Shown: positions 42,194 through 63,899 of the stretch, piece by piece
How positions within the stretch are numbered: the stretch's first letter is position 1
Layout of the letters: the number at the start of each line of letters is the position of its first letter
NCBI GenBank assembly: GCA_947085255.1
Contig: CAMTVQ010000002.1
Coordinates: forward strand, 68,688-132,687
DNA: 64,000 nucleotides
Direction: 5' to 3'
Source: an uncultured bacterium
GTDB lineage: Bacteria > Bacteroidota > Bacteroidia > Sphingobacteriales > Sphingobacteriaceae
Program-made: the position numbers and the translations under genes
Notes under the pieces: model-generated
Databases searched by the model: none
What the model saw: only the letters and a program-made list of their open reading frames with translations
Told to the model about the DNA's origin: nothing

Positions 42194-42637
42194 ATGAAAA
42201 TATTATTAGCTATAGATGGTTCTGCGCATAGTATGGCCGCTGTTCAAGAAATTGCATGCAGGCCGTTTCCGCCTAAAACAGAAGTGCGCATTCTTGCTGT
42301 GTACGAAATTGCACCATTTATTATGCAAACAGAATTAGCAAGCATATCTCAAGAATACTATGCCGAAGCTGATAAGTATGCGCTAAAAGCAGCCACAACT
42401 ATTGCCGAAAAGGCAGCTCATGAATTACACACAAAAAATCCTGCACTCACAGTTAGTACTACGGTGGTAGAAGGCGCTCCAAAGAGTGTTATTTTAAAAG
42501 AAGCCGAAACTTTTGGTGCTAATTTGATTGTGGTGGGTTCTCATGGATATGGGGCTATAGAGCGTTTTTTGCTTGGCTCTGTTTCTCAATCGGTGGCATT
42601 ACATGCAAAATGTTCGGTAGAAATAGTACGCAAATAA
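42194..42637 (+). CDS. universal stress protein (UspA family)
   Basis: 147 aa. KILLAIDGS ... LIVVGSHGYGAIERFLLGSVSQSVALHAKCSVEIVR is the canonical Usp ATP-binding motif. Confidence 0.85.
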   Translation: MKILLAIDGSAHSMAAVQEIACRPFPPKTEVRILAVYEIAPFIMQTELASISQEYYAEADKYALKAATTIAEKAAHELHTKNPALTVSTTVVEGAPKSVILKEAETFGANLIVVGSHGYGAIERFLLGSVSQSVALHAKCSVEIVRK

Positions 42638-42671
42638 CAGTCAGATAAACAATAGTATAAATAAAAACAAC

Positions 42672-43415
42672 ATGAAATTACAACACAACACCCTAACAGC
42701 CTTTGCTTTGGTAACATTGCTTTTGGTAACCGCTTGTACAGAAGACAACAATAACCCAGGAGGTAATCCTATTGTAATTCCTCTTCAAACTACGGTACAT
42801 GCTATCGTTCCACTTGGAGGCACTATCAACTTTGCAGTACTTGCTGGTTCAGCTGTTACCAATACAGGTGCAACCGTAATTACTGGCGATTTAGGACTTA
42901 GCCCTGGCACTTCGGTAGGCGGATTTCCTCCCGGCATACTCAATGGCACACAACACATTAACGATACCATTGCCACCCAAGCAAAACAGGATTTAACTAC
43001 CGCCTATAACGATGCAGCAGGAAGAACAGCTACAGATATCGTTACCCTATCGGGCAATATCGGTGGACTTACACTTACCCCAGGGCTGTATAAATCTACC
43101 TCCTCATTGTCTATCTCTTCGGGTGATGTTACGTTTGATGCAAAAGGAAATGCAAATGCTGTGTTTATTATACAAATAGCTTCTGCTTTTACCACCACAT
43201 CTGGTCGTAAAGTTATTCTTAGTGGAGGTGCGCAGGCATCCAATATTTTTTGGCAGGTAGGCAGTTCGGCAACTTTTGGTACTACCTCTGTACTTAAAGG
43301 AACAATAATGGCTATGCAGTCGATTACGTTTAATACTGGAGCAACGCTTGATGGCAAAGCACTAACTAGAACAAGCGCCGTTACCCTATCGGGCAATACC
43401 ATTGTAAAGCAGTAA
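42672..43415 (+). CDS. ice-binding-like (DUF3494) family lipoprotein, single domain
   Basis: 247 aa. Lipobox LLVTAC. FAVLAGSAVTNTGATVITGDLGLSPG ... LTPGLYKSTSSLSISSGDVTFDAKGNANAVFIIQI ... IFWQVGSSATFGTTSVLKGTIMA ... LDGKALTRTSAVTLSGNTI is the DUF3494 beta-solenoid signature. Confidence 0.8.
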   Translation: MKLQHNTLTAFALVTLLLVTACTEDNNNPGGNPIVIPLQTTVHAIVPLGGTINFAVLAGSAVTNTGATVITGDLGLSPGTSVGGFPPGILNGTQHINDTIATQAKQDLTTAYNDAAGRTATDIVTLSGNIGGLTLTPGLYKSTSSLSISSGDVTFDAKGNANAVFIIQIASAFTTTSGRKVILSGGAQASNIFWQVGSSATFGTTSVLKGTIMAMQSITFNTGATLDGKALTRTSAVTLSGNTIVKQ

Positions 43416-43428
43416 TCAGCCAACCAGT

Positions 43429-45183
43429 ATGAGCACTAAAAAAACAGAACTACCTGTGGCGGAAACTGCCCCTAAATGGGCAAAATTCCGTTCGGATATG
43501 CTTAAGTCATTTCCATCTCCGTATAAAGGCGAAAAGGATTCTTTGGCAGATGCCATAGATAAAGCCATACGCCAGTTGGATAAACTAAAATCTGAAAAAA
43601 CAGGAGGTGCTGCGTATTTAGGAACCAACTCTGCTCTTACTATTGATTTCGAAAATGTAAAAGATTCTGCTCTATTACCACAAATGAGCACCTCGGCTGC
43701 GGTAATAGAGCAAGTAATCGAGTTATTTGAAGGATTGCCTAACTGGGGACATCCGCTTACCATGTGCAACGTAAGTCCGCAAGGAAATACAGCAGCAGTA
43801 GTTGCCGCCATTTTATCCGAAATATTTGCCCCCAATATTTTGGAAGGCGAGTATGCCTGGAATATTCACAAAGCAGAATTAGAATCAGCCGGAATATTAG
43901 CAAATCTTGCTGGCTGGGAGCCTAAAAAAGCAGGAGCAATTTATACCTATGGCGGTTCGGGCTGCTGGACCTACCACTTAAAATATGCCCTTACGCGCGT
44001 GCTGCCAAATTCGCGGAATACAGGCGTACGCACAGATGCAAAAGTAATTTGTTCGCAACAAGCGCATTATACCATGCTCAACAGTACCGATTGGACCGGG
44101 TTAGGAATGGATAATATTATCCGTATCCGCACAGATATGGATACCAATGCCATGGACATGAAACATCTGGAAGACGTATTGAAAGATTGTAGAGATAAGA
44201 AAATTCCTGTTGCTTCTGTGGTGTGCACGATGGCTACTACCGATGCAAATGCATTTGATCCCGTAAAAGAAGTACGCCAGCTAATAGACAAATACCCCAA
44301 CCCCAATGGCTATGGAAAAACCTTATTGTATTGCGATTCGGTAATTGGCTGGTCGTGGATCGCTTTCAAAAACTACGACTTCAAGGCCAATCCACTTGGT
44401 TTTTCTGAAGCAGTGCTTCCGTATATCGAACAAAACTATACGGCAATAAAAGACATTTTTTATGCCGATGCTTTTGGGGTAGATTTTCATAAAACAGGCT
44501 TTTCTCCGTACATCAGCAGTGCTTTTGTGTACAAAGATGCCGCCGAGTTTGAGGGTTTACTTACACGCGAAGGGCCTGCCTATTTGCAACCCCGCTCCCC
44601 TTACAACCCAATGGATTATACCTTAGAGGTTTCGCGCGCAGCAACAGGTTCTTTGGCTGGATGGGCTACCCTTAAATTTTTTGGTCACGAAGGTTTTCAG
44701 GCTGTGTTAGGCGGCATATTGGAGAACAAAGTGTACCTCAAAAATCAGATTGCCAAAAGAAGCGATATGGTTTGTGTAAACCCATCCGACTATGGATTGG
44801 TAACCCTCTTAAGAATCTATCCTACGGGAGTACATGCACAAACACAATTTGATGGTGAGTTAAGCGACCCTACTTACCGCAAGGCCTTAATTACCCACAA
44901 CAAACTAACTCATAGTATTGGTGATACCCTATTTAACTGGTTCCGTTCGGGCAAAAAGATACAGGGTAAATGCACTCCGTATCTTAGTTTCAGCACGGGT
45001 TTTCGTACCGCAGAATACAACCGAGATATGAAAGATGGAGAAGCACTTATTTACGCCCTTAAAATATTTCCGATGAACGTACACATTACTCCCGAAGTAA
45101 TGGATCATGTATTAGACTGTATCAGTGCCGCCAGAGATGAAGTAATGGCACTGGAAGAAAGCAAATACGTGGAGAGTTTTTAA
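43429..45183 (+). CDS. PLP-dependent group II decarboxylase-like enzyme (fold-type I)
   Basis: 584 aa. TMATTDANAFDP, LYCDSVIGWSW and DFHKTGFSPY (candidate PLP lysine) resemble the TLGTT..G..D / H.DAA / N.HK motifs of group II decarboxylases. Substrate unknown. Confidence 0.55.
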   Translation: MSTKKTELPVAETAPKWAKFRSDMLKSFPSPYKGEKDSLADAIDKAIRQLDKLKSEKTGGAAYLGTNSALTIDFENVKDSALLPQMSTSAAVIEQVIELFEGLPNWGHPLTMCNVSPQGNTAAVVAAILSEIFAPNILEGEYAWNIHKAELESAGILANLAGWEPKKAGAIYTYGGSGCWTYHLKYALTRVLPNSRNTGVRTDAKVICSQQAHYTMLNSTDWTGLGMDNIIRIRTDMDTNAMDMKHLEDVLKDCRDKKIPVASVVCTMATTDANAFDPVKEVRQLIDKYPNPNGYGKTLLYCDSVIGWSWIAFKNYDFKANPLGFSEAVLPYIEQNYTAIKDIFYADAFGVDFHKTGFSPYISSAFVYKDAAEFEGLLTREGPAYLQPRSPYNPMDYTLEVSRAATGSLAGWATLKFFGHEGFQAVLGGILENKVYLKNQIAKRSDMVCVNPSDYGLVTLLRIYPTGVHAQTQFDGELSDPTYRKALITHNKLTHSIGDTLFNWFRSGKKIQGKCTPYLSFSTGFRTAEYNRDMKDGEALIYALKIFPMNVHITPEVMDHVLDCISAARDEVMALEESKYVESF

Positions 45184-45204: not shown

Positions 45205-46026
45205 TTAAATCTTTTTTTGTTGTTTTGGTGGTAAAAAATTTTCTCCTGTTACTACTTTTTTTCCTGTTTGCACCTCCAATTGCACCCTTGCATCTTTGGC
45301 AATTTTGCCTCCTTTTTTGCTTGCTTTTGCATTTTCAAGTAACCCTTTAGCGTCATCTGTTTGGGCTATTTGTCGTGTTGATAGTTCAGCTAAGGCAGTA
45401 AAAATCAATTCGGCTTCGCTCATGTGGTCACGCAGGTTTTGCGATTTTAAGCCCTTCAAATCTTTGTGTTTTTTTACCGATAAGCCTGTCCATTCCTGAT
45501 GAATAATATTTGTAAGCAATGCAAATTCATCCGCTTTTTCTACACCGCTCTCTTTCCAGTAATCCGTGAGTTTGTTTCGGGTTTCTTGCCCTGTCATTCG
45601 TTGCTGAATCCATTTTTCGCTACGTCCTAGTTTTTGCCAGTTTTCTCTGGCTCTATCTATACTTTGGCTAGGGTCGGCTATTTCTTGCATACGTTCGTAG
45701 CCCACTTTGGCTAGCCATTGTTTAAAAGGTTCTGCTTTGGGTGATGGTATGGATTGGATAAGCCTAAAAATATCTTGCGCATTGCCAGCCAAAGTTTTAC
45801 GCTTCTTTCCGTTTGATAACATTTCTACCTGGGGACAATTTGTCCCTAGGTAAGCGCCGAGTTCAGTGTCTCTTTTTCTGAGTTTTTTTAAATAATCAGT
45901 TGGATTAATCGATTCTGTAAGGGCTTCTACAATATCTACAACAGAAAAATACCAAATATCTTTTTCTGCGTCGTAATACCTACGTACTTGCCTGTTTTCA
46001 AATAAAATAATGTTTTGATTACTCAT
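45205..46026 (-). CDS. BRO-N domain / DNA-damage-inducible protein D (DinD)-like protein
   Basis: 273 aa. FENRQVRRYYDAEKDIWYFSVVDIVEAL ... FRLIQSIPSPKAEPFKQWLAKVGYERMQEI is the typical DinD/Bro pattern. It is the only minus-strand gene in the island. Confidence 0.75.
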   Translation of the reverse strand: MSNQNIILFENRQVRRYYDAEKDIWYFSVVDIVEALTESINPTDYLKKLRKRDTELGAYLGTNCPQVEMLSNGKKRKTLAGNAQDIFRLIQSIPSPKAEPFKQWLAKVGYERMQEIADPSQSIDRARENWQKLGRSEKWIQQRMTGQETRNKLTDYWKESGVEKADEFALLTNIIHQEWTGLSVKKHKDLKGLKSQNLRDHMSEAELIFTALAELSTRQIAQTDDAKGLLENAKASKKGGKIAKDARVQLEVQTGKKVVTGENFLPPKQQKKI

Positions 46027-46378
46027 AGATAAATTACTTTTTAGTTCCCCTCAATTAATTTTTTGTTCCTTCTCTTTCAAATCATACAATGTTTTGTTGG
46101 CATTTCAATAGTTACTATCTCGCCAATGCTTTTAGTGCTTTTTTTGGTGTTTGCGGTACTAATTTAATCACGGTTTATTTGCTTTTCATTTGTGTTATAG
46201 AAGATATTAAGCGGTTTAATCCAATAAGATCTGTCCATTATTAAGGTGTTAAAGTTAAGTTTTTAAACCGTTTTTAGCCCAAAAATGCCATCAAATTATC
46301 AACGGTCTGAACGTCCTGCTATCCGGCTGGGCATACTCAGATGCCGCTACTCTTAGCTACCCCCAACGCTTACAATAC

Positions 46379-46414
46379 GTGATTTGTATAACTCTTTTAC
46401 AGAGTTATGTAATG
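46379..46414 (+). promoter_or_regulatory. 36-bp promoter module, copy 3
   Basis: GTGATTTGTATAACTCTTTTACAGAGTTATGTAATG. -7-like ccTTTG at 46439-46442. The ATG at 46477 is 63 nt after the module end. The ORF-track start at 46384 lies inside the module and is rejected. Confidence 0.7.
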
Positions 46415-46476: not shown

Positions 46477-48207
46477 ATGAACATGAAAATTCTATTCCGA
46501 TTACTTACTCTACTGCTGCTAATACATGCAAGCACCGCATTTGCACAAGCTCCGCCTCAGGCATTCAAATACCAATCTATTGTTCGTAATACGGCTGGAA
46601 ACCCACTCGTAAATACCAGCATTCAGATACGTGCCACCGTGCATGAAAGTTCAGCAACGGGCGTTGCAGAGTATCAAGAAACGCATAATGCTATTACCAA
46701 CCAATTTGGATTGATAAACCTTGAAATAGGTACAGGAACAGTGGTAAGTGGCGTATTTGCTAACATTGATTGGGGAGCAGGAACTAAATGGATGCAAATT
46801 GAAGCCGATTTTGGAACGGGATATGAGCCAATGGGAAATTCCCAATTATTGAGCGTTCCGTATGCATTGTACGCCCCCAATAGAACAGCAGGAGTAACGG
46901 GCACAACAAGTGCTACTGGAGCAAATGGAATAAATGGTGCTACTGGAGCCACCAGCGCAACAGGCAAAGGAAATACAGGAACAACAGGCAGTACCAGCGC
47001 AACGGGCATTAATGGAATTACTGGGGCTACAGGGGCTACGAGTGCCACTGGAAAAGGAAATACAGGAACGACAGGATCTACCAGTGCAACAGGCACAGAA
47101 GGAATTACTGGAGCAACAGGCAGTACCAGTGCTACTGGTATGGGAATTACTGGAACAACAGGTTCTACTAGTACAACAGGTGAAATAGGCGCTACTGGAG
47201 TAACAGGCAGTACCAGTGCTACAGGCATGGGTATTACCGGAACAACGGGTAGTACAAGTGCGACAGGTGCAGAAGGAATTACTGGAGCAACGGGCAGTAC
47301 CAGTGCTACTGGCATGGGTATTACTGGAACAACAGGTTCAACTAGTGCCACAGGTGCAGAAGGTGTTACTGGAGTAACGGGCAGTACCAGCGCTACAGGC
47401 ATGGGTATTACCGGAACAACAGGTTCAACTAGCGCCACAGGTGCAGAAGGAATTACTGGAGCAACAGGCAGTACCAGTGCTACAGGCATGGGAATTACCG
47501 GAACAACGGGTAGTACCAGCGCAACTGGTGCAGAAGGAATTACCGGAGTAACAGGCAGTACTAGTGCAACTGGAGCTGAAGGCATTACCGGAACAACGGG
47601 TTCTACCAGTGCAACTGGCGCAATAGGAATTACTGGAACAACAGGTTCTACCAGTACAACAGGTGAAATAGGCGCTACTGGAGTAACAGGTAGTACCAGC
47701 GCTACAGGTGCGATAGGAATTACTGGAGCAACCGGCATTACCAGCGCAACTGGATTACAAGGAATTACTGGAGCAACCGGCAATTCAATAAATACTTATG
47801 CAGAGTTTTATGCACTAATGCCTACCGACAATGCTGCAACTATAGCAATTGGCGCACCCGTATTATTCCCTCGAGATGGGCCAACAGATGGGGTAATTAC
47901 CCGCATTTCTGCTGGTACTTTTCAACTAACGGATGTAGGAACATACCAAGTGTTTTTTCAGGTAAGTATATCGGAAGCAGCACAACTGGTGTTGGTACTC
48001 AATGGAACTGAACTTACCAGAACAGTAGTAGGACGTGCTACGGGTACCAGTCAGGTGGTAGGTATGTCATTTATCACTACCACTACAGCAAATTCCATAT
48101 TGGCGGTACATAATCCAGCTACGAATAGCACAGCACTAACCATTACTCCTATTGCTGGAGGTGCCAATGCGGTTTCGGCTAATCTGGTTATTATGAGAAT
48201 AAAGTAA
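46477..48207 (+). CDS. secreted collagen-like (GxT triplet repeat) protein with a BclA-C / C1q-like C-terminal globular domain
   Basis: Start re-set to [24 protein letters not shown] (signal peptide). ~110-aa N-terminal domain, ~300 aa of G-x-T triplets, and a ~140-aa beta-rich C-terminal domain ([16 protein letters not shown]...LVLNGTEL...ANLVIMRIK). Confidence 0.7.
46891..47781 (+). repeat. coding triplet-repeat region with an 87-bp (29-aa) higher-order period
   Basis: The unit [30 protein letters not shown] is repeated. G-x-T runs are interrupted by SAT and by 2-residue GM steps. The antisense PVAPV ORF 46674-47783 is a shadow. Confidence 0.85.
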
Positions 48208-48232
48208 CCCATTATTTAGACACCTAAATACC

Positions 48233-48763
48233 ATGAAGATGAAATTTAAAATCAGTACCCTACTTACCGTCCTATACTTTTATGGCGCAAGCAGTTGTTT
48301 GTATGCTCAATACTTCCCTCACCATGTGATTGCCTCCTCAGGAACTTTTACAACATCAGCAAGTGGTTCCATGGCTTGGACCCTTGGTGAAATCACAATA
48401 GAAACCTGTACCTCTATTGATAATTTTCTAACGCAGGGCTTTCATCAGCCATCTGAACGCGCAACAGCAGTAGTGCCTACCGATTTTTTTATTCCAGAGG
48501 GTTTCTCGCCGAACGACGATGTGGTAAACGACTTGTTTATTATTAGAGGCATTGACAATTACCCCAAAAACACCTTTGTGGTGCTTAACCGTTGGGGTAC
48601 TAAGCTATTTGAGGCAAGTCCGTATCAAAACAATTGGGACGGAAAAGCCAAAATGGGCATGCGCCTCGGAGAAGGTGAATTGCCCACAAGTACGTATTTC
48701 TACCTGCTCGATTTGGGTGATGGTTCTGAGGTGTTTAAAGGAACTATCTATTTGATTAAATAA
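48233..48763 (+). CDS. minimal T9SS type B (gliding-motility CHU_C) C-terminal-domain protein
   Basis: 176 aa. Signal peptide, a ~70-aa N-terminal part, then FIPEGFSPNDDVVNDLFIIRGIDNYPKNTFVVLNRWGTKLFEASPYQNNWDGK...GTYFYLLDLG...KGTIYLIK, closely similar to the C-terminus of 57677-60940. Confidence 0.8.
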   Translation: MKMKFKISTLLTVLYFYGASSCLYAQYFPHHVIASSGTFTTSASGSMAWTLGEITIETCTSIDNFLTQGFHQPSERATAVVPTDFFIPEGFSPNDDVVNDLFIIRGIDNYPKNTFVVLNRWGTKLFEASPYQNNWDGKAKMGMRLGEGELPTSTYFYLLDLGDGSEVFKGTIYLIK

Positions 48764-48799
48764 GTGAATTATGTAACTATTTCCGGAAGATGTGTAAAG
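48764..48799 (+). promoter_or_regulatory. 36-bp promoter module, copy 4 (starts 1 nt after the stop codon of 48233-48763)
   Basis: GTGAATTATGTAACTATTTCCGGAAGATGTGTAAAG. -7-like tcTTTG at 48823-48826. ATG at 48862, 63 nt after the module end. Confidence 0.7.
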
Positions 48800-48861
48800 C
48801 GGCAGCATACGAAGCAAGCATCTTTGTGGGGTGAAGATTCATTCACCCTAATTACAATAAA

Positions 48862-50487
48862 ATGAACAATCCATTACGCTATATTATAGCCACAGCCATT
48901 ACACTGTTAGCTATTCCTTCTGTAAATTTTGGACAGGCTCCTAACTTAGGATCAGCTGCCAATTTTGTATTATTTTCTACCGATGGTGCTGTAAGCAACT
49001 CGGGCATTTCTCAACTTACAGGTAATGTAGGTACCAACAATGGTTCTAGTACCAATTTTGGAAACGTAAACGGTGGCATGCACGACCAGGACATTACCAG
49101 TGCGCAGTGTGCCGCAGATTTACTGATTGCTTACAATCAATTGGATGCAGCTATTCCAACTATGTTTCCTGCTCCACTTCTTGGAAATGGCGATACACTT
49201 GATGCGGCAGTATATGCTGTAGCGCAAGCAGCTACTTTAAACGGAACCCTTATTTTGGATGGAAAGGGGCAACCTGGTTCTGTATTTGTTTTTCAGATAG
49301 ATGGCTCATTTTTAACAAGCGCCAACTCAAAAATACTATTGATTAATGGAGCACAAGCATGTAATGTATTTTGGAAAATAGAAGGTTTGGTAAGCATGGC
49401 TTCTGGAACAAGTATGAAAGGCACTGTGATTGCCAACAATGCTGCCATTGAAATGAACACCACCAATACATTGGAAGGCAGATTGCTTTCTACGGCTGGT
49501 GCGGTTACGGTTGATGGCGTATTGGCATATACACCTATTGGTTGCGGAAGTGCTGTACTTACTGGTCCTACTGCTCCTGCATTGGGCAGTGCTATCTGTT
49601 ATGCACTATTTTCTTCTAACGGAGCGGTTTCTAATACTGGTGTAACGTATGTTACTGGTGATATTGGTAGCAACAACGGAAGCGCTACTGGCTTCAATCC
49701 ATTGTTTGTAACAGGCACTATTCACCCTATACCTGATGGCTCTACACAACAATGTGCTAACGATTTATTAGTTGCTTATAATTATATAAACGCATTGCCT
49801 TTCGATATCGAATTATTATATCCTGAGCAGTTTGGAAGAAACTTGGTACTTACTCCACATACCTACCGTATGAACGGTGCAGTTACTTTTACTGATAGTT
49901 TGTACCTAAATGCACAAGGCAATGCCGATGCGGTATTTGTGATACAAGTAAACGGAGCACTTTCTACCAGCACATACGCAAAAGTGATTTTGATAAACGG
50001 AGCACAAGCTAAAAACGTGTATTGGAAAATAGAAGGTGCTGTAAGCATTAATAACTATTCTATTTTTAGAGGAACAATTATTTGCAACAACGGTGCTTTG
50101 GGAGCTTTTAATACAGGAGTTGAGTTGGATGGCAGAATGCTTACCACTACAGGTGCTTTAACAACTGCAGCAGTAAATGTAGTAGCTACCATGTTGCCTG
50201 GCAATTGTGCTACAGCAAGCATTTCGTCTCCTAATGAGGATACAAAAGCGGTAACTATTTACCCAAATCCATTTAGCACCATTGCTACTATTGAGGTAAA
50301 TGATGCAGCACATATTGGACGCGTTGAGTTGGTACTATACAACGTACTGGGAGCCGAAATAACCCGCACCCGCATTACAAAACAAACGACCACCTTGCAC
50401 ACCAATGACCTACCTGCAGGCGTGTATTTTTACAAGGTAATTGATGGCGCTAAAACCATACAATCAGGAAAACTGATTGCTCAATAG
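48862..50487 (+). CDS. tandem double DUF3494 (ice-binding-like) protein with T9SS type A C-terminal sorting domain
   Basis: 541 aa with a signal peptide. Two DUF3494 units (FVLFSTDGAVSNSG...VFWKIEGLVS...LEGRLLSTAGAVTV, and YALFSSNGAVSNTG...VYWKIEGAVS...LDGRMLTTTGALT). C-terminal IYPNPFSTIATIEV...GVYFYKV tail. Confidence 0.8.
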   Translation: MNNPLRYIIATAITLLAIPSVNFGQAPNLGSAANFVLFSTDGAVSNSGISQLTGNVGTNNGSSTNFGNVNGGMHDQDITSAQCAADLLIAYNQLDAAIPTMFPAPLLGNGDTLDAAVYAVAQAATLNGTLILDGKGQPGSVFVFQIDGSFLTSANSKILLINGAQACNVFWKIEGLVSMASGTSMKGTVIANNAAIEMNTTNTLEGRLLSTAGAVTVDGVLAYTPIGCGSAVLTGPTAPALGSAICYALFSSNGAVSNTGVTYVTGDIGSNNGSATGFNPLFVTGTIHPIPDGSTQQCANDLLVAYNYINALPFDIELLYPEQFGRNLVLTPHTYRMNGAVTFTDSLYLNAQGNADAVFVIQVNGALSTSTYAKVILINGAQAKNVYWKIEGAVSINNYSIFRGTIICNNGALGAFNTGVELDGRMLTTTGALTTAAVNVVATMLPGNCATASISSPNEDTKAVTIYPNPFSTIATIEVNDAAHIGRVELVLYNVLGAEITRTRITKQTTTLHTNDLPAGVYFYKVIDGAKTIQSGKLIAQ

Positions 50488-50505: not shown

Positions 50506-50540
50506 AAAAGCCCCCTTGCTTTAGGCGAGGGGGCTTTTTT
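50506..50540 (+). terminator. rho-independent terminator
   Basis: AAAAGCCCCCT (50506-50516) pairs with AGGGGGCTTTT (50528-50538). T-run to 50540. Confidence 0.8.
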
Positions 50541-50548
50541 ATGAATGT

Positions 50549-50584
50549 GTGAATAATGCAAGTAATTATCAAAGTTGTGTAACA
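50549..50584 (+). promoter_or_regulatory. 36-bp promoter module, copy 5
   Basis: GTGAATAATGCAAGTAATTATCAAAGTTGTGTAACA. TAccTTTA -7-like box at 50605-50612. Confidence 0.65.
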
Positions 50585-54611: not shown

Positions 54612-54624
54612 AACATACAGCACC

Positions 54625-54963: not shown

Positions 54964-54996
54964 AACAATAATCAGTTACACCTAATAGTTAAGAAG

Positions 54997-55689: not shown

Positions 55690-55701
55690 AACTATACACA
55701 C

Positions 55702-56373: not shown

Positions 56374-56428
56374 AAACCGTTCTCAAAAAAGCATACCAAG
56401 CATTATCAGTTCACTCACACCTCAGATA

Positions 56429-57196
56429 ATGAAACACAAACGTATTCGATTAACAGACATATCCACACTGCCTACCGAAAAAATAGGTAAAGAAAAAGCT
56501 GCCACAGAAATTGCCCTTTTGATAGAAAAGCTATCAATCATACAGAACAAACTGTATGCGCAGCAAAAACATGCGGTACTTATTGTGCTGCAAGGCATGG
56601 ATACCAGCGGAAAAGATGGCGCTGTAAAAAATGTATTCTCGGGCGTAAACCCTGCAGGCTGCAATGTAAAATCATTTAAAGTTCCTACCGCAGAAGAAGC
56701 TGCCCATCATTTTTTATGGCGCATTAGCAAAGAGTGTCCACAAAAGGGGATGATTCAAATTTTTAATCGCTCGCACTACGAAGATTTACTAGTGCCTATA
56801 GTAAACAAAACGATAGAGAATAAACAGATAAAAATACACTGCAACGAAATAAATGCATTCGAAAAAGGATTAATTCACGATAATACGATCGTGTTAAAAT
56901 TTTACTTGCATATATCTCATAACCAACAGCTGGAGCGATTGGCAGCCCGCAAAAAAGAAGAACACAAACGCTGGAAATATCAAAAGGAAGATATAGCTGC
57001 TATCAGCAAACACAAAGAATACCGCAAAGCTTACGAAACTATTTTTAAGCATTGCTCGGATGTTGCGCCTTGGCAAATAATACCCGCCGATTTAAAATGG
57101 TATAAAAACTACCGCATACTAAAAGATATTGTACACGAGCTGGAACAATACCCTATTGACTACCCAAAAATTACCGAAAAACAATTGGATCATTAA
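56429..57196 (+). CDS. polyphosphate kinase 2 (PPK2) family protein
   Basis: 255 aa. VLQGMDTSGKDGAVKNVFSGVNP (Walker A-like), FLWR, FNRSHYEDLLV. Confidence 0.8.
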   Translation: MKHKRIRLTDISTLPTEKIGKEKAATEIALLIEKLSIIQNKLYAQQKHAVLIVLQGMDTSGKDGAVKNVFSGVNPAGCNVKSFKVPTAEEAAHHFLWRISKECPQKGMIQIFNRSHYEDLLVPIVNKTIENKQIKIHCNEINAFEKGLIHDNTIVLKFYLHISHNQQLERLAARKKEEHKRWKYQKEDIAAISKHKEYRKAYETIFKHCSDVAPWQIIPADLKWYKNYRILKDIVHELEQYPIDYPKITEKQLDH

Positions 57197-57207
57197 TTGT
57201 ACGAAGC

Positions 57208-57243
57208 GTGATTTATATAACTATTTGCAACTACTATGTAATA
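57208..57243 (+). promoter_or_regulatory. 36-bp promoter module, copy 7
   Basis: GTGATTTATATAACTATTTGCAACTACTATGTAATA. TAatCTTG -7-like box at 57264-57271. The ORF-track TTG start 57269 lies in that box and is rejected. Confidence 0.65.
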
Positions 57244-57313
57244 GTTAAGTACCTCATCTACCGTAATCTTGTGTTGTCGTGAAAATTCATTCACAACAAA
57301 AAAAATAATAAAG

Positions 57314-57511
57314 ATGAAAAATATTGAAAATCACAAAAAAGCTGCAATGCATTCAGAAGAAGCTGCAAAAAATCATCATGAAGCTGCAAAGCATCACGAA
57401 GCAGGTAATCATGATAAAGCACACAACCACACGGTTAAAGCTCATGGACATTCTACCTTAGCTCACGAAGCTCAGAAAGAAGTGCTAAAAGACCAAGCAT
57501 TAACTAAGTAG
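57314..57511 (+). CDS. small histidine-rich helical protein
   Basis: 65 aa from ATG 57314: MKNIENHKKAAMHSEEAAKNHHEAAKHHEAGNHDKAHNHTVKAHGHSTLAHEAQKEVLKDQALTK. It has its own promoter module and terminator. Confidence 0.5.
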   Translation: MKNIENHKKAAMHSEEAAKNHHEAAKHHEAGNHDKAHNHTVKAHGHSTLAHEAQKEVLKDQALTK

Positions 57512-57531: not shown

Positions 57532-57568
57532 AAAAAAAGCATCCCGCCTAAGGCGGGATGCTTTTTTT
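57532..57568 (+). terminator. rho-independent terminator
   Basis: GCATCCCGCC (57539-57548) pairs with GGCGGGATGC (57552-57561). TAA loop, A-run before and a T7 run after. Confidence 0.85.
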
Positions 57569-57676: not shown

Positions 57677-60600
57677 ATGAAAATTAAACTACTCCATACC
57701 CTACTAATAGCCATAGGCTTATTATGTATTCCGAAGGTAAACTTCGGACAAGCGGTAGCACCTACATTAGGTACTGCAGCTAATTTTGCAATTTTCTCAT
57801 CTGCCGGCGCCGTAACCAGCTCCAGCAGTTTGTTATACCTCACACACGTTACAGGTAATATAGGTTCACAGCCTGCATCCACCTCTGGTTTTGGTAATGT
57901 GGACGGTGTGCTGTACCAAGGTGGTACTACGTTCGGTACGGGTACAACCGATGTTCAAGCTACCTATGCACAACTAAATGGACTAACACCCACCAATGCT
58001 TTAGCAACTCCTTTTGGAGCTGGTGTAGTGCTTGTAGAAGGTGTTTATGCGATATCAAGTGCATCACAACTTACCGGGGATTTGATACTGGATGCCCAAG
58101 GAGACGCCGACGCAGTATTCATTTTTCAACTGGGTGGCGCATTTAACACCGCCGCCAATACAAAAGTAAAATTGGTAAACGGCGCCTTAGCCTGTAATGT
58201 ATTTTGGAAAGTAGAAGGAGCCGTTACGATGGCTGCCGGAACCAGCATGAAAGGAACCATTATTGCCAACAACGATTTTATCAGCATGGCAGCCAACGAT
58301 ACCTTAGAAGGAAGAGCACTTTCTTTAAATGGAGCAGTAAGCATGAACCAAACGGTTGTTTACCTACCAAAAGGCTGCAATAGTCCGGTACTTACAGGAC
58401 CAATAGCACCAACACTTGGTTCTTCAGAATGCTACGGCATATTTACTTCCGACGGTCCTGTTACCGATGACGGTGCATCACGCGTAGTTGGCGATATTGG
58501 AACAAACGGTCCTGGTGATTTAACCATTGGCTATAATCCATTATTCGTAACGGGTACGATTCACCCTATAGCAGATGCTTCTACAGCACAGTGTGCTACA
58601 GACGTGGGCGTAGCTTATAGTTATGTAAATACGTTAGCAGAAGATATTATTTTACTACGCCCCGATTTGTTTGGGCATGATTTGGTGCTTACCCCACATA
58701 CCTACCGTATGAATGGTGCCGTAACCTTTACCGATTCGGTATTCCTTAATGGAGAAGGTAATCCAGATGCCGTATTTATCATCAAGGTGTATGGTGCTTT
58801 TAATACCAATGTAGGTTCAAAAGTAGTATTGACTAACGGAACACAAGCAAAAAATGTATACTGGATGATTAATGGTGCTGTTGATATAAACATCAACTCC
58901 ATTTTTAATGGTTCATTTATTAGTGCAGGTGCCATCGATTTACAAACTGGCGTACGCATGAACGGAAGAGCATTTACTACCGTTGGTGCCATTAATACCT
59001 ATGCCATTATTACTACATTACCTTCTGGATCGGCCGGCGCAGCTGGACCTATATCGGGCGACGACTCGGTGTGCAGCGGACAAACAGGAGTTATTTACTC
59101 TGTAGCTCCAATTGCTGGCGCAACCGACTATAGCTGGACAGTACCAATTGGTGCAACCATCACTTCAAGCGATACTACAAACACTATAGCCGTAACTTTT
59201 GGTCCACTTGCTATTAGCGGAAACGTAACCGTGCAAGGTACGGGTACGTGTAGCAATGGTTCTACATCAACATTTACAGTTATTGTAAACCAACCACCAA
59301 CAGTAAACTTTGTACCCAACCAAACGGTGTGCAACAACGAACAAACAATGCCAGTAATTTTTACAGGCACTATGCCAGGAACAACCTATAGCTGGACAAA
59401 TACCGACAGTACTATCGGATTGGCAGCAAACGGAACTGGAAACATCAATCCGTTTACCGCAATAAACACAACGGCACTTACCATTATTGCAACAATAACC
59501 GTAACACCTACTGCCAACGGATGCGATGGAGCTGATACTAGTTTTACCATCACCGTAAACCCAACACCGGTGGTTGATAGCGTAACAGACCAAGCGGTGT
59601 GTAACAACTCGCAAACAGCAGCAGTACTATTTACTGGTACCGTTGCAGGCACTACTTACAACTGGACCAATAGTGATACCACTATAGGATTAGCAGCAAG
59701 CGGAAGTGGAGATATTAATCCTTTTACAGCCACAAACACAACTGCAAATGCCGTTATAGCAACTATAACCGTAACACCTACTGCCAATGGTTGTGCTGGA
59801 ACAGATACTTCTTTTACCATAACCGTAAACCCAACACCAACAGTAAATAGTGTGGCCAGCCAAACGGTATGTGCCAACACAACCACAACAGCCATCGCTT
59901 TTGGTGGTAGTGTTGCAGGTGCTACGTACAACTGGACAAACGACAATACCTCAATAGGATTGGCTGCAAGTGGCACTGGAACGATTGCCGCCTTTATAGG
60001 CAGCAACACCACATTAGTAGCTAATACCGCTAACATAACCGTAACGCCTACAGCAAACACCTGTACTGGTGCAGCTACCAGTTTTACGATTACAGTAGAC
60101 CCAGCACCTATGTTGGATACCGTAGCCGACCAAACCTTGTGCAACACAGCAACAACTGCACCCATCGTATTTAGTGGAGCAGGCGTAGGCGCTACCTATA
60201 GCTGGACAAACGATAATACCTCTATAGGCTTGGCGGCAAGCGGAAACGGAGACATTAATTCGTTTACAGCAACCAATACTGGCTCAGTTGCCGCCATAGC
60301 AACTATTATTGTTATATCACCAGCACCAGGCTGTGATGGAACAACACTTTTTACGATAACCGTAAACCCAACACCAACAACCAACCCCGTAGGCAACCAA
60401 ACGGTATGCACCAATACAGCAACAACACCAATCACTTTTAGCGGCGCTGTTGCGGGTACTACCTACAACTGGACCAATAACAATACGTCTATCGGATTGG
60501 CTGCTGCTGGTAATGGAGATATTGCTGCCTTTACTGCAACCAATACAGGTGTAAATGTAGTTACAGCAACCATAACTGTAACACCTACCGAAACCACTAC

Positions 60601-60940
60601 TGGATGTGCCGGAAGCGCTACCGCCTTTACTATTGCAGTAGACCCTTGCCCTACTACCGACTTTCATATTCCAGAAGGTTTTTCTCCGAATGCCGATGGT
60701 ATAAACGATTTGTTTATCGTGAGAGGAATTCAGAACTACCCTGCCAATACATTCGAAGTATTTAATCGTTGGGGTGATAAATTATTTGGAGCAGCACCTT
60801 ACCAAAACACATGGGATGGTAAAGCTACAACAGGAGTACGTTTGGGTGATAATGAATTGCCTACAGGCACGTATTTCTACATACTCGACTTAGGTAATAA
60901 CTCACCTATTTATAAAGGAACTATTTATCTAAACAGGTAA
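57677..60940 (+). CDS. large surface protein: tandem double DUF3494 (ice-binding-like) head, PKD/Ig-like repeats, and a T9SS type B (CHU_C) C-terminal domain
   Basis: 1087 aa with a signal peptide. Its two DUF3494 units are close paralogs of 48862-50487 (LVLTPHTYRMNGAVTFTDS shared). One PKD-like unit plus five ~89-aa tandem repeats (...TYxWTNxxTSIGLAAxGxGxI..FTAxNT...ATITVTPTANGC.G...FTITVNP). C-terminal FHIPEGFSPNADGINDLFIVRG...GTIYLNR. Confidence 0.8.
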   Translation: MKIKLLHTLLIAIGLLCIPKVNFGQAVAPTLGTAANFAIFSSAGAVTSSSSLLYLTHVTGNIGSQPASTSGFGNVDGVLYQGGTTFGTGTTDVQATYAQLNGLTPTNALATPFGAGVVLVEGVYAISSASQLTGDLILDAQGDADAVFIFQLGGAFNTAANTKVKLVNGALACNVFWKVEGAVTMAAGTSMKGTIIANNDFISMAANDTLEGRALSLNGAVSMNQTVVYLPKGCNSPVLTGPIAPTLGSSECYGIFTSDGPVTDDGASRVVGDIGTNGPGDLTIGYNPLFVTGTIHPIADASTAQCATDVGVAYSYVNTLAEDIILLRPDLFGHDLVLTPHTYRMNGAVTFTDSVFLNGEGNPDAVFIIKVYGAFNTNVGSKVVLTNGTQAKNVYWMINGAVDININSIFNGSFISAGAIDLQTGVRMNGRAFTTVGAINTYAIITTLPSGSAGAAGPISGDDSVCSGQTGVIYSVAPIAGATDYSWTVPIGATITSSDTTNTIAVTFGPLAISGNVTVQGTGTCSNGSTSTFTVIVNQPPTVNFVPNQTVCNNEQTMPVIFTGTMPGTTYSWTNTDSTIGLAANGTGNINPFTAINTTALTIIATITVTPTANGCDGADTSFTITVNPTPVVDSVTDQAVCNNSQTAAVLFTGTVAGTTYNWTNSDTTIGLAASGSGDINPFTATNTTANAVIATITVTPTANGCAGTDTSFTITVNPTPTVNSVASQTVCANTTTTAIAFGGSVAGATYNWTNDNTSIGLAASGTGTIAAFIGSNTTLVANTANITVTPTANTCTGAATSFTITVDPAPMLDTVADQTLCNTATTAPIVFSGAGVGATYSWTNDNTSIGLAASGNGDINSFTATNTGSVAAIATIIVISPAPGCDGTTLFTITVNPTPTTNPVGNQTVCTNTATTPITFSGAVAGTTYNWTNNNTSIGLAAAGNGDIAAFTATNTGVNVVTATITVTPTETTTGCAGSATAFTIAVDPCPTTDFHIPEGFSPNADGINDLFIVRGIQNYPANTFEVFNRWGDKLFGAAPYQNTWDGKATTGVRLGDNELPTGTYFYILDLGNNSPIYKGTIYLNR

Positions 60941-60982
60941 TACCATTAAAACCAGAAAACACCATTAATAACGAACAAGAAA

Positions 60983-61924
60983 ATGAAAACACTTAAAAAT
61001 ATATCCCTCGCATTGGTCTTAACACTAGGGAGTTTAACCCTTAAGGCCCAACAAATACCAGCTTATACCCACTATATGAACAATACACTGGTAATAAACC
61101 CTGGTTACGCCGGAAGCAGAGATGCACTAACCGTAACGGCATTGCACCGCTCGCAATGGGTAGATTTTAAAGGGGCACCCACTACCCAAACCATAACAGC
61201 ACATACGCCATTGCGCAACGAACGCTTAGGTTTAGGTTTAGCAGTAATGAACGACAAAATAGGACCGACCAACAACACATCGGCCATTGTTGATTTTGCT
61301 TACAAACTAAAACTAACCGAAAAAGCCAAATTAGCTTTTGGTGTGGGCGCAGGTGCAAATATTATGCAAGCCGACTTAAATACGCTTGATTTAGATCAAC
61401 AAAACGACCCCTCTTTCCAAAACAACGTCAACAATAAGGTAACCCCTACTGTTGGTGTGGGTCTGTATTTGTCTAAAGAACGTTTTTATGCAGGTATTTC
61501 AACACCTAACGTATTGCAAAACACGTTTGCAGAAACCACACAGGCAAACGGAGCTACCCTTACAGCAAAAGAACAACGTCATTATTTTGCCATAGCAGGT
61601 GCTGTGTTTAATCTAAGCGAAAACTTAGCTTTTAAACCTACTACATTAATTAAAATAACGGCTGCTGCACCTATACAAGGTGATCTTACTGCATCTTTTA
61701 TCATCAAACAACGCCTATTAGTAGGTGCAATGGTACGCTCGGGTGATGCTGTTGGTGGTTTAATTGGATTTGATATTACCAATCAACTACACTTAGGATA
61801 TTCTTACGATTGGTCGTATGGCTTAGAAACAGGCAAATACAACCAAGGAAGCCATGAGTTGCTATTACGCTACGACTTCGTATTCTTCAACAAAAAACAA
61901 ATTCACTCACCAAGATATTTTTAA
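60983..61924 (+). CDS. PorP/SprF-family type IX secretion system membrane protein
   Basis: 313 aa with a signal peptide. QQIPAYTHYMNNTLVINPGYAGS ... LGLGLAVMNDKIGP ... C-terminal beta-barrel. Immediately follows a type B CTD cargo gene. Confidence 0.85.
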   Translation: MKTLKNISLALVLTLGSLTLKAQQIPAYTHYMNNTLVINPGYAGSRDALTVTALHRSQWVDFKGAPTTQTITAHTPLRNERLGLGLAVMNDKIGPTNNTSAIVDFAYKLKLTEKAKLAFGVGAGANIMQADLNTLDLDQQNDPSFQNNVNNKVTPTVGVGLYLSKERFYAGISTPNVLQNTFAETTQANGATLTAKEQRHYFAIAGAVFNLSENLAFKPTTLIKITAAAPIQGDLTASFIIKQRLLVGAMVRSGDAVGGLIGFDITNQLHLGYSYDWSYGLETGKYNQGSHELLLRYDFVFFNKKQIHSPRYF

Positions 61925-61964
61925 TCCCTTATCCTAAAATTTAATGTACAAAAAATTAGAAAAC

Positions 61965-63899
61965 ATGAAAAAGATACTTATTCCCCTAATTATATTCATA
62001 GCGCTATGCATTAATGCTTTTGCAAGTGTCAAATCAAACAAAGAATTAAAAGGCGATAAACGCTATGCGAGCTACTCGTTTACCAAGGCTATTAATGCCT
62101 ATACAAACGCAAAAGCGTTAACACCCGAAGGGCAACGTCGCTTGGCAGAAAGCTATAGCAGGATTAATAAAAATGCAGAAGCGGAAACGGCGTATTCAAC
62201 CTTGGTAAGTACACCAGAAGGTGTAGTTCCCGAAGATTATTACCGCTATGCAATGGTATTGAAAGCCAATGGAAAATACGAACAGTCAAACAACTGGATG
62301 GACAAGTTTGTGGCCATAAAACCAACCGATTTGCGTGCAAAAAGCTTTGCCGCCAACAAAAAAGAATTAGCCAATCTATCAAAAGATGATGGTAAGTATA
62401 AGTTAACAACCATGACGGCTAATAGCGATGATAGAGATTTTGGCCCAGCTTATTACAACAATAAAATTGTTTTTGCCTCGAACAGAGAAACTCCTGGCAT
62501 TATTTCTCGCAAATCCGCTTGGACAGGAAAACCTTTTTTAGACTTATACATGGCCGAAGTAGAAGCTGGTCAGCTAAAGGATCCTGAAAATTTTGACAGA
62601 AACCTAAATAGCAAAATGCACGACGGTCCTGCAAGTTTTAGCAACGACGGCACGTGTATGGCTTATACAGTAAACAACTACAAGGACAAAAGTAAAGACC
62701 GTGTAGTAGAGCTTAGAATCTTTTTTAGCAACTATGTAGACGGAAAGTGGTCGAAACCAGAAGGTTTTGCGCTAAACAATCCTGGTTATTCAGTGGGTCA
62801 CCCCTGCCTTACTGCCGATGGAAACACCATGTATTTTACCAGTGATATGCCTGGCGGATTTGGTGGAGCAGATATTTACCGCATTACTAAAGTAAGCAAC
62901 GGAACATGGGGTAAAGCCGAAAACATGGGCGATAAAATAAATACAGAAGGGAATGAAATGTTCCCGTTTTTTGAAGAAAACAACGGCGTATTATTTTTTG
63001 CCTCCGACGGACATTATGGGTTAGGCGGTTTAGATGTTTTTATCTGCATGCTTAACGGCACAGAAGCAGGCAAGATGTACAATGCTGGTTCTCCATTAAA
63101 TACTCGGTACGATGATTTTTCTGTCATCGTAAACAAGCAAGCAAGCAAAGGATACTTTGCATCAAACAGAGTGGGTGGTAGCGGAGACGATGATATTTAC
63201 GCATTCGACTTACTGCGCTCATTAAATGTTGGTAAACGCATAGAAGGCGTTGCCAAAGACAATAACGGCAACAGCATACCCCGCACTTTTGTAACCTTGC
63301 TCGACAACAATGGGGTGATTGTAAACACCATTACCACCAATGACGAAGGCGCATTCACCTTTTTAGTTGATCCAGATAAAATATTCAAGCTAATTGGCAA
63401 CAAAGAAAACTACACCGAAGGCACCAGTGCCGCCAGCACATTTGGTAGCGAGTTTATTGTAAAAGCCGATGTTACCTTACTACTAAAAACAGTTGCTAAA
63501 ATGGACGTGGGTGATGATTTGGCAACAATTGTAGTCTTTAATCCCAACAAAATTTATTTTGATGTAGACCAATTCGCTATACGCCCAGATGCGGAGAAAG
63601 AATTGAAAAAAATTGTAGATATCATGAATGAATACCCAAGTATGATAGTCGAGTTGCGTGCACATACCGATTGCCGCGCACCTAAAGAATATAACCAAAT
63701 ACTATCCGAAAAAAGAGCTACCGCTTCTGCCGAGTATATCCGCAACCGAATTGTAAACCCTGAGCGTATTTATGGTAAAGGCTATGGTGAAACAAAATTG
63801 GCTAACGGTTGCGAGTGCGAAGGCGAAGTTGTTTCTACCTGCAGCAATAATGAGCAACAGAAAAACAGACGTACCGAATTTATTATCGTAAGAAAATAA
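61965..63899 (+). CDS. OmpA-family protein (TPR-like, TolB/PD40-like beta-propeller, CarboxypepD_reg-like and OmpA_C domains)
   Basis: The ORF track starts at 61944. ATG 61965 (MKKILIPLIIFIALCINAFA) is preferred. C-terminal IYFDVDQFAIRPDAEKEL...ELRAHTDCRAPKEYNQILSEKRA...RRTEFIIV is the OmpA peptidoglycan-binding motif. Confidence 0.8.
   Translation: MKKILIPLIIFIALCINAFASVKSNKELKGDKRYASYSFTKAINAYTNAKALTPEGQRRLAESYSRINKNAEAETAYSTLVSTPEGVVPEDYYRYAMVLKANGKYEQSNNWMDKFVAIKPTDLRAKSFAANKKELANLSKDDGKYKLTTMTANSDDRDFGPAYYNNKIVFASNRETPGIISRKSAWTGKPFLDLYMAEVEAGQLKDPENFDRNLNSKMHDGPASFSNDGTCMAYTVNNYKDKSKDRVVELRIFFSNYVDGKWSKPEGFALNNPGYSVGHPCLTADGNTMYFTSDMPGGFGGADIYRITKVSNGTWGKAENMGDKINTEGNEMFPFFEENNGVLFFASDGHYGLGGLDVFICMLNGTEAGKMYNAGSPLNTRYDDFSVIVNKQASKGYFASNRVGGSGDDDIYAFDLLRSLNVGKRIEGVAKDNNGNSIPRTFVTLLDNNGVIVNTITTNDEGAFTFLVDPDKIFKLIGNKENYTEGTSAASTFGSEFIVKADVTLLLKTVAKMDVGDDLATIVVFNPNKIYFDVDQFAIRPDAEKELKKIVDIMNEYPSMIVELRAHTDCRAPKEYNQILSEKRATASAEYIRNRIVNPERIYGKGYGETKLANGCECEGEVVSTCSNNEQQKNRRTEFIIVRK

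Follow-up and report, generated by a model that had tools for sequence, protein, structure and literature searches.

We analyzed a 64,000-nucleotide (nt) stretch of contig CAMTVQ010000002.1 from an uncultured bacterium of the Sphingobacteriaceae (the window). Its right half carries nine copies of a 39-nt repeat, the module, and the first copy stands before an operon (31805-42017) that opens with the gene for a 189-residue AraC-family protein, AraC189. We propose that this 32-kb half is the core of a regulon found across Bacteroidota. The original prediction read the genes at 42194-63899 as a general-stress program combined with a cold and surface response and tied together by one cis-element; it named no regulator, and the candidate regulator operon lies just upstream of that range. 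To our knowledge, Bacteroidota have so far lacked any described general stress regulator or stress cis-element. The original prediction had said the same, and in the full-text literature searched, which covers few subscription papers, we found neither the motif nor the regulator described, nor a regulon for general stress in Bacteroidota.

The module and its promoter geometry

A repeat finder recovered the module as a family of nine copies in the window:

31712-31750, plus strand: module copy 1, TCTGTGATTTATGTAACTATTTTACAGATTTATGTAACA, 45.7 bits leave-one-out; drives the regulator operon
31774-31777, plus strand: -7 box TTTG of module copy 1
42093-42131, plus strand: module copy 2; drives Usp, the DUF3494 lipoprotein IBP247 and a pyridoxal phosphate (PLP) decarboxylase
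46376-46414, plus strand: module copy 3; precedes transcription unit (TU) 3
48761-48799, plus strand: module copy 4; overlaps the stop codon of the gene before it
50546-50584, plus strand: module copy 5; precedes TU5
52076-52114, plus strand: module copy 6; precedes TU6
57205-57243, plus strand: module copy 7, the weakest, 23.8 bits
57575-57613, plus strand: module copy 8; precedes TU8
63962-64000, plus strand: module copy 9; cut by the window end, its gene lying beyond it

All copies are intergenic, lie on the plus strand and have a start codon 54-87 nt downstream. They are far beyond chance: scored leave-one-out with a position weight matrix (PWM), they reach 24-46 bits, whereas the best non-module site on both window strands (128 kb) scores -7 bits and the maximum over 20 shuffles is 6.8 bits.

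The module is made of two imperfect direct half-sites, 21 nt apart (GTGAATnATGTAAC ... TTgTGTAAC), and each half-site of two boxes, GTGA ... TGTAAC, about 9 nt apart. Pooling the copies of the window with those of 200 other loci, with redundancy removed (274 copies), gave the consensus tGTGTGAATnATGTAACTttTT-N8-TTgTGTAAcac, followed by about 20 uninformative bases and then AnCTTTG. This last box stands at a fixed 22-nt distance from the second TGTAAC of the module; its TTTG falls at offset 62 or 63 in 222 of the pooled copies, and no position between module and -7 box is conserved among them. In Bacteroidota, TAnnTTTG is the "-7" box recognized by sigma-A, in promoters of the -33/-7 type, and the promoter-proximal half-site of the module falls on the -33 region.

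Two other origins of the repeat were considered and rejected. A promoter of an extracytoplasmic function (ECF) sigma factor, with TGTAAC as its -35 element, should show -10-like conservation 16-17 nt further on, and the 274 copies have none; because the ECF -10 position is not conserved, the geometry is that of an activator site and not of an alternative-sigma promoter. The module is not a mobile repeat (a miniature inverted-repeat transposable element or repetitive extragenic palindrome) either, since its flanks in other genomes are unrelated except for the -7 box; it also always faces a gene and keeps its fixed distance to the -7 box. Rfam gave no match in the region of the modules, so neither the module nor the inverted repeat downstream of it belongs to a known RNA family.

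This inverted repeat, GTGAA-N6-TTCAC, lies 4-7 nt past the -7 TTTG, roughly on the transcription start:

48831-48846, plus strand: GTGAAGATTCATTCAC, after the -7 box of module copy 4
57279-57294, plus strand: GTGAAAATTCATTCAC, downstream of module copy 7

It occurs in 30 of the 274 module promoters (about 11%). Offsets 71 and 74 account for 25 of these, against a chance expectation of about 2. Loci L001, L018, L023, L071, L088, L098, L103, L116, L127, L141 and others carry it at the same offset, and it is followed by genes for small secreted proteins, DUF3494 proteins, CsbD and sll1863-type lipoproteins. The repeat resembles a CRP/FNR-type site and could be the operator of a second regulator, or it could form a 5' hairpin.

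The module-driven units of the window

Nine module-driven units lie in the window, the regulator operon being the first. With families assigned by Pfam and NCBIfam, the others read as follows:

42194-45183, plus strand: TU2, composed of Usp, a DUF3494 lipoprotein and a group II PLP decarboxylase
42194-42637, plus strand: Usp (PF00582, 92.6 bits)
42672-43415, plus strand: DUF3494 lipoprotein IBP247 (PF11999 Ice_binding, 221 bits)
43429-45183, plus strand: group II PLP decarboxylase
46477-48763, plus strand: TU3, a collagen-repeat protein and a small CHU_C protein
46477-48207, plus strand: collagen-repeat protein (PF01391, 80 bits)
48233-48763, plus strand: small protein with a signal peptide and a CHU_C sorting domain of the type IX secretion system (T9SS)
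48862-50487, plus strand: TU4, a protein with two DUF3494 domains (PF11999, 257 bits) and a T9SS type A C-terminal domain (CTD; Por_Secre_tail)
50672-52004, plus strand: TU5, a Bestrophin-like protein and a coiled-coil lipoprotein
50672-51502, plus strand: Bestrophin-like membrane protein (PF14023, formerly DUF4239; 167 bits)
51522-52004, plus strand: coiled-coil lipoprotein, signal peptide with lipobox Cys
52179-57196, plus strand: TU6, eight closely packed genes, CsbD through PPK2
52179-52367, plus strand: CsbD (51.9 bits)
52404 onward, plus strand: coiled-coil lipoprotein with lipobox Cys (NCBIfam "sll1863 family stress response protein", 52.5 bits, cut-off 35)
52867 onward, plus strand: hydrophilic 80-aa open reading frame (ORF), no family match
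53136-54611, plus strand: catalase (638 bits)
54625 onward and 54997 onward, plus strand: two hypothetical genes
55702-56373, plus strand: FNR-like flavin reductase (NAD_binding_1/FAD_binding_8)
56429-57196, plus strand: PPK2 (197 bits)
57314-57511, plus strand: TU7, a His-rich 65-aa protein (18.5% His), no family match
57677-63899, plus strand: TU8, a DUF3494/CHU_C protein, PorP/SprF and a PorE-like protein
57677-60940, plus strand: 1087-aa protein with two DUF3494 domains (PF11999, 228 bits), PKD-like repeats and a CHU_C type B CTD
60983-61924, plus strand: PorP/SprF
61944-63899, plus strand: PorE/CHU_0125-like OmpA protein
42053-42085, 50506-50540, 52025-52066, 57532-57568 and 63917-63955, plus strand: intrinsic terminators, found by folding

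The terminators (hairpin and T-run, -23 to -29 kcal/mol) lie just before the modules at 42093, 50546, 52076, 57575 and 63962, and the modules at 48761 and 57205 adjoin the preceding stop codon without one. A scan with consensus promoters and terminators gave counts at or below shuffle expectation. Genes within a unit are on the same strand, with gaps of 12-55 nt. We infer the membership of genes that do not directly follow a module, such as catalase to PPK2, from this tight same-strand spacing and the lack of terminators, and TU6 would be a single eight-gene unit judging from spacing only.

The 13 genes listed in the original prediction were borne out in coordinates (within a few codons) and in family by Pfam, NCBIfam and codon usage; for the 52867 and 57314 ORFs, the annotated frame scores best in the codon-usage test. 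Several of its labels need correction. The 52867 ORF, called hydrophilin-like, has a grand average of hydropathy of -1.69 and 0% Gly; as hydrophilins combine high hydrophilicity with more than 6% Gly, it is not a strict hydrophilin. Adhesin models match the window proteins below cut-off only. "Ice-binding-like" is right insofar as the PF11999 domain is clearly present in all three DUF3494 proteins, but at 138, 98 and 91 bits these fall far below the 400-bit cut-off of the NCBIfam ice-binding equivalog (IBP_CFB).

T9SS sorting domains of type A or B were found in the proteins encoded at 48862 (Por_Secre_tail) and at 48233 and 57677 (CHU_C/Bac_Flav_CTERM). The collagen-like gene and the CHU_C ORF of TU3 were also considered as one frameshifted gene, which was rejected as the CHU_C ORF has its own signal peptide. 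TU8 is a dedicated T9SS type B cargo set (DUF3494/CHU_C protein, PorP/SprF and PorE) behind a stress-type promoter, and the DUF3494-PorP gene order is also present in locus L039.

The 32-kb block is co-directional except for one minus-strand gene (45205-46026), whose product is a Bro-N domain protein of a phage-associated family; the gene converges with TU2, is followed by a 350-nt gap and then module copy 3, and may be an insertion. Outside the region of interest, an Rfam DUF805 RNA motif lies at 11165-11229 (minus strand; 59 bits, above gathering) and a tRNA at 3077-3163 (minus strand).

AraC189 and its kinase and receiver cassette

Module copy 1 is followed by the gene for AraC189 and a series of signaling genes:

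31805-32374, plus strand: AraC189, AraC family, 189 aa, TTG start; first gene behind module copy 1
32421-34427, plus strand: PAS-HisKA-HATPase-REC hybrid histidine kinase, 668 aa, with a C-terminal Hpt-like region below the Pfam cut-off
34411-34848, plus strand: REC145, a single-domain receiver overlapping the end of the kinase gene; acceptor Asp present (IILDYHL)
34902-35366, 35425-35868 and 35895-36395, plus strand: three single-domain receivers
36407-37723, plus strand: histidine kinase, 438 aa, with an N-terminal array of 21-aa repeats
37845-42017, plus strand: CheB-CheR-PAS-HisKA-HATPase-REC fusion kinase, 1390 aa, followed by the terminator at 42053-42085

AraC189 has the C-terminal two-helix-turn-helix (two-HTH) domain of about 100 residues that characterizes the AraC/XylS family (HTH_18, 64.6 bits against a cut-off of 33.6; HTH_AraC, 54 bits), and it has no matching NCBIfam equivalog. 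Its AlphaFold2 (AF2) model (pLDDT, predicted local distance difference test, 84.8) has an N-terminal domain joined through a linker helix to a DNA-binding domain of seven helices (residues 92-179). By Foldseek, the DNA-binding domain matches AraT, YesN, MarA, SoxS and AraC (template modeling (TM) scores 0.67-0.84, target-normalized) and also AdpA; the nearest solved structures by sequence are AraT (6swi), YesN (3lsg) and a hybrid two-component system (HTCS) protein (12aw).

Residues 1-62 are modeled as a beta-alpha-beta-beta-alpha-beta, HMA-like ferredoxin fold, for which Foldseek returned the copper chaperones CopZ and Atox1 (2qif, 7dc1, 1fee, 1fe0; probability 1.0, target-normalized TM 0.62-0.68, E 0.02-0.07). 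Pfam gave no HMA match and the MxCxxC metal motif is missing: its position holds an invariant M8-V-S10-x-R12-C13, in which the first Cys is replaced by Ser. The residues M8, S10, R12, C13 and H27 of this domain are invariant, and the single conserved Cys-13 suggests possible redox or metal sensing. No Response_reg match was found in AraC189 by Pfam, and thus no REC domain with a phospho-acceptor Asp.

The region of the TTG start, ttgaaattatacatcaaatacatggt, is conserved at the DNA level in other orders, and strand beta-1 of the model is built from the initial residues KLYIKY; the public gene call P0001 (182 aa) begins at an internal ATG and would truncate the fold.

Orthologs of AraC189 are 67-80% identical across Bacteroidota. 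Of at least 8000 protein matches, the best 120 show 73-80% identity along the entire protein, and Cyclobacteriaceae, Paludibacter, Flavobacterium and Chitinophagaceae are among their sources; the closest named homolog among the matches listed is from a metagenome-assembled genome (MAG) of the Cyclobacteriaceae. In 47 aligned orthologs from different orders the DNA-reading helices are invariant, which matches the invariance of the motif. The architecture, an HMA-like plus AraC protein of about 186 aa, fills 525 clusters at 50% identity (E <= 1e-30), and AraC189 is one very conserved orthogroup among these paralogs.

The cassette is conserved along with the regulator. A kinase gene lies directly 3' of the regulator gene in 20 of 27 regulator loci, and 15 of 27 have both the kinase and a REC145 ortholog behind it, the stop and start codons often overlapping. 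The same arrangement was annotated in a 3.7-Mb Bacteroidales contig (L202) and a Flavobacterium genome (L204), and neither these nor the window has a DNA-binding protein other than AraC189 in the conserved cassette. Within the operon of the window, 32880-34014 and 40488-41622 share 73-86% DNA identity at an offset of 7608 nt, between the hybrid kinase and the kinase-receiver part of the CheB/CheR fusion, which indicates a fairly recent internal duplication. In addition, eight tandem 63-nt (21-aa) repeats at 36362-37086 lie in the N-terminal part of the 438-aa kinase.

Distribution across Bacteroidota and linkage to the regulator

We searched 185,579 species genomes for a degenerate pattern to which all nine copies conform. 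The module was found in at least 120 loci (135 sites), where chance would yield less than one match. These loci span at least six Bacteroidota orders: the listed matches are from Bacteroidales, Chitinophagales, Saprospirales, Cytophagales, Flavobacteriales, Sphingobacteriia and unclassified Bacteroidota, all but three lying in the phylum. The three are in a Chlorobiales MAG (L010), an FCB group bin (L047) and a MAG labeled Saccharibacteria (L054), and may be mis-binned contigs or reflect a wider distribution of the module.

Linkage was assessed in two sets, 120 module-anchored genome loci of 8 kb and 80 regulator-anchored metagenome loci. An AraC189 ortholog is present in 11 of the 120 module-anchored loci, and in 10 it is the first gene behind the module; this is about 10% of loci, against about 0.2% expected from random placement (a rough estimate for a 4-Mb genome). 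Conversely, a strong module lies 31-72 nt (mostly 50-61) before the regulator start in 25 of 74 regulator-anchored loci, with a degenerate copy at the same distance in about 8-10 more. Modules were found in 24 of the 27 regulator-anchored loci of at least 10 kb, with a mean of 3.0 or about one per 5 kb. The regulator operon of Flavobacterium L204 starts with a cupin gene, and it is this gene that follows the module.

A subgroup of regulators in L160, L177 and L179 is followed by a short kinase of about 300 aa. A variant site about 137 nt upstream of the regulator gene has only its first half-site intact (TGTGTGAATTATGTAAC ... TTGTGCGTA), and this subgroup may be a diverged sub-system.

Module targets in other genomes

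DUF3494 is the most frequent target family elsewhere. The genes found behind modules, by family and number, were:

First genes behind 123 genome sites: Ice_binding 10, AraC 10, CsbD 9, DUF6600 5, OmpA 5, glycine-zipper 4, DUF748 4, DUF4142 3, Usp 2, YtxH 2
First genes behind 94 metagenome sites (regulator genes removed): Ice_binding 9, DUF5670 5, OmpA 4, YtxH 4, CsbD 4, Big_5 4, BON 1
Later operon genes: outer membrane protein (OMP) beta-barrels 9, MlaE 4, AI-2E transporters 4, CsbD 4, holin-X-like 4, Usp 2, YtxH 2, KaiB 2

Orthologs of window proteins recur behind modules for all three DUF3494 forms, CsbD, both lipoproteins, Usp (in the module-anchored set only) and the PorE-like protein, and one homolog of the His-rich 57314 protein was found there as well. 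A module lies no more than 330 nt upstream of 9 of the 14 CsbD genes in the regulator-anchored loci, compared with 23 of 238 background ORFs (p = 3.7e-6). Among about 270 and 250 downstream ORFs, in contrast, there was no catalase, PPK2, bestrophin-like protein, collagen-like protein or PLP decarboxylase, and the FNR-like reductase had a single match.

Therefore, the conserved core combines the regulator cassette with small proteins of stress and envelope type and with DUF3494 proteins exported by the T9SS, and the oxidative and metabolic genes look like additions specific to this genome. The central claim of the original prediction, that one cis-element ties stress-type proteins to secreted DUF3494 proteins, holds well outside the genome in which it was made. 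Its expectation that the module would precede orthologous genes in relatives came true for DUF3494, CsbD, sll1863-type and Usp genes; in the loci covered, no catalase, PPK2, bestrophin-like or collagen-like gene was found behind a module.

Other targets were observed in single loci. In Flavobacterium L204 (13599-17007), modules precede a GH130 and glycosyltransferase pair and a DUF5670 gene; in Bacteroidales L202 (14623-15797), they precede a cluster of OMP beta-barrel, YtxH and holin-X-like genes and a giant Big_5/DUF3494 protein.

Discussion

The combination of motif analysis, structure prediction and comparative genomics suggests how the regulon may work. AraC189 would bind the module half-sites (GTGAATnATGTAAC, then ..aaTTgTGTAAC), probably as a dimer, with one two-HTH domain on each half-site and the 21-nt spacing placing these two helical turns apart. 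The proximal half-site would cover the -33 region, at constant spacing from the -7 box of a sigma-A promoter, and from this position AraC189 is predicted to be a class-II-type activator rather than a repressor. It would activate nine transcription units including its own operon, and so create positive feedback. The co-transcribed PAS hybrid kinases and single-domain receivers may set its activity; as AraC189 has no receiver domain, we propose that they do so most likely by protein-protein contact with the HMA-like N-terminal domain. The putative output is a protective program, induced by stress, of CsbD, Usp, sll1863-type lipoproteins and T9SS-exported DUF3494 surface proteins. YtxH, DUF5670, BON, glycine-zipper and OmpA-like proteins would be added elsewhere, and catalase, PPK2, the flavin reductase, the bestrophin-like channel and the collagen-like protein in this genome.

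On balance, we lean towards this reading, in which AraC189 and the module would form a phylum-wide, kinase-controlled activator regulon with a general-stress-like output. CsbD, Usp, YtxH, BON and sll1863-type proteins mark multi-stress regulons in other phyla (those of sigma-B, RpoS and EcfG). Families of this kind are present both behind the modules of the window (CsbD, Usp, catalase, sll1863-family) and behind those elsewhere (CsbD, YtxH, Usp, BON, glycine-zipper, DUF5670). The general-stress part of the original prediction is thus supported by analogy as far as the CsbD, Usp, sll1863, YtxH and BON families recur, but not for the oxidative and metabolic genes.

Several points weigh against it. 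AraC189 is assigned to the module through guilt by association, and a module over the -33 region could also serve a repressor. The kinase link is one of operon membership, since AraC189 has no receiver domain. A recognizable module stands directly upstream of only about a third to half of the regulator genes, and because the architecture family is large, the linkage statistics could be confused by paralogs. The loci were sampled through the motif or the regulator, which makes them a biased genome sample. Finally, "general stress" is an analogy to other phyla, as most conserved targets are functionally uncharacterized envelope proteins, and counterparts of catalase, PPK2, the bestrophin-like and the collagen-like protein of the window were not found behind modules in the other loci.

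The strongest alternative keeps the regulator and the module but has them direct a specific remodeling of the envelope and surface under one PAS-kinase cue, with stationary phase, biofilm or surface life, osmotic or desiccation adaptation and a light/redox or day-night signal as candidates. By far most of the conserved targets belong to the envelope or are secreted, including OMP beta-barrels, proteins like OmpA and PorE, glycine-zipper lipoproteins, MlaE/MlaD, AI-2E transporters and T9SS cargo accompanied by a PorP and PorE of its own. Moreover, KaiB domains were seen twice in module operons, PAS sensors stand at the head of the cassette and the classic cytoplasmic stress enzymes are not conserved members. 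Nevertheless, we consider this explanation rather unlikely, given the recurrence of the multi-stress markers named above and the addition of catalase and PPK2 to the same module in this genome. Several kinases and five receiver domains in one operon also suggest that many inputs are integrated.

A second alternative is that a protein encoded elsewhere, such as a LytTR-type response regulator, binds the module and that the AraC189 operon is simply one of its targets. LytTR sites are direct repeats with a 21-nt periodicity, which the module fits as well as it fits AraC sites; over half of the regulator genes have no strong module directly upstream, and AraC189 has no receiver domain. However, the conserved cassette encodes no further DNA-binding protein, modules cluster near AraC189 genes in the long loci, and the regulator is found in module-anchored loci far more often than by random placement. 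The length and two-box structure of each half-site fit one two-HTH AraC domain, and the DNA-binding helices are conserved as strongly as the motif. We therefore regard this alternative as improbable.

A dedicated cold or freeze-protection program centered on ice-binding proteins, the other half of the original prediction, is very improbable: three DUF3494 proteins lie in the window, the family is the commonest target elsewhere and some matches are in MAGs whose record names refer to palsa, fen and glacier-fed stream sites, but the case hangs on the Pfam name "ice-binding-like", the scores of 91-138 bits miss the equivalog cut-off, the same targets occur in many MAGs and isolates of varied habitats without cold-habitat names (Flavobacterium piscis included), and cold-shock genes are absent among the targets.

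The preferred reading, an AraC189-module activator regulon, can be set beside known systems. Class II activators of the AraC/XylS family (AraC at araI1-I2, XylS at Pm, RhaS, MelR) share with it the two-HTH domain, autoregulation and sites of direct half-sites of about 15-17 bp, 21 bp apart, with the proximal one over the -35 or -33 region. They carry a cupin/jelly-roll ligand domain where AraC189 has its 62-residue HMA-like ferredoxin fold, whereas here the promoter has the -33/-7 form of Bacteroidota, kinases and receivers share the operon of the regulator and the regulon concerns stress and envelope rather than a catabolic pathway. Bacteroides HTCS proteins and REC-AraC regulators such as YesN and AraT likewise combine a histidine kinase, a receiver and an AraC DNA-binding domain; here these are separate polypeptides, the DNA-binding protein has no receiver, and the targets are not polysaccharide utilization loci. 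MarA/SoxS/Rob and GadX/GadW are also AraC-family activators of dispersed stress regulons. However, MarA and SoxS bind single asymmetric boxes as monomers and GadX/GadW serve acid resistance only; all are proteobacterial, without HMA-like domain or kinase cassette.

With the general stress systems of sigma-B (Bacillus, Listeria), RpoS (Gammaproteobacteria) and PhyR-NepR-sigma-EcfG (Alphaproteobacteria), the proposed regulon shares outputs (CsbD/YjbJ, YtxH, Usp, catalase, BON/OsmY, glycine-zipper lipoproteins, small hydrophilic proteins) and positive autoregulation; with the alphaproteobacterial system, it also shares several kinases and single-domain receivers upstream. It differs from them in that a sigma-A-dependent AraC-type activator would take the place of an alternative sigma factor, with no anti-sigma or partner-switching proteins, and in that T9SS-secreted DUF3494 proteins are a major output. 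The Flavobacteriaceae ice-binding proteins (IBP_CFB) share the Pfam Ice_binding domain with the three window proteins. These, in contrast, are multi-domain proteins with T9SS sorting domains and PKD-like repeats, and DUF3494 proteins belong to the core targets of the module in MAGs and isolates of diverse habitats.

Taken together, this apparently undescribed regulon, with its activator control, unusual regulator architecture and secreted DUF3494 output, leads to a broader idea that we put forward tentatively and with slightly more doubt than belief: that Bacteroidota, without RpoS, sigma-B or EcfG systems, may nonetheless have a phylum-wide general stress response of another design. A nearly invariant HMA-like/AraC activator, with its single invariant Cys-13 possibly acting as a redox or metal sensor, and a phosphorelay from PAS hybrid kinase to single receivers would act through a 39-nt tandem site that replaces the -33 element, and so switch on small envelope-protective proteins and DUF3494 proteins.

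From a biological perspective, Bacteroidota are dominant in soils, waters, wastewater and guts, and the motif predicts regulon members in any of their genomes. The candidate regulator is open to deletion in tractable relatives, such as Flavobacterium species that carry the cassette, and the conserved kinase-receiver input is a testable part of the system. The 39-nt module and its regulator could also mark stress-state transcription in metatranscriptomes. Finally, the DUF3494 family is reframed as one that, in Bacteroidota, is co-regulated with CsbD- and YtxH-type proteins regardless of habitat; if the tentative idea above is true, the real role of these proteins would be surface stress protection and not ice binding.

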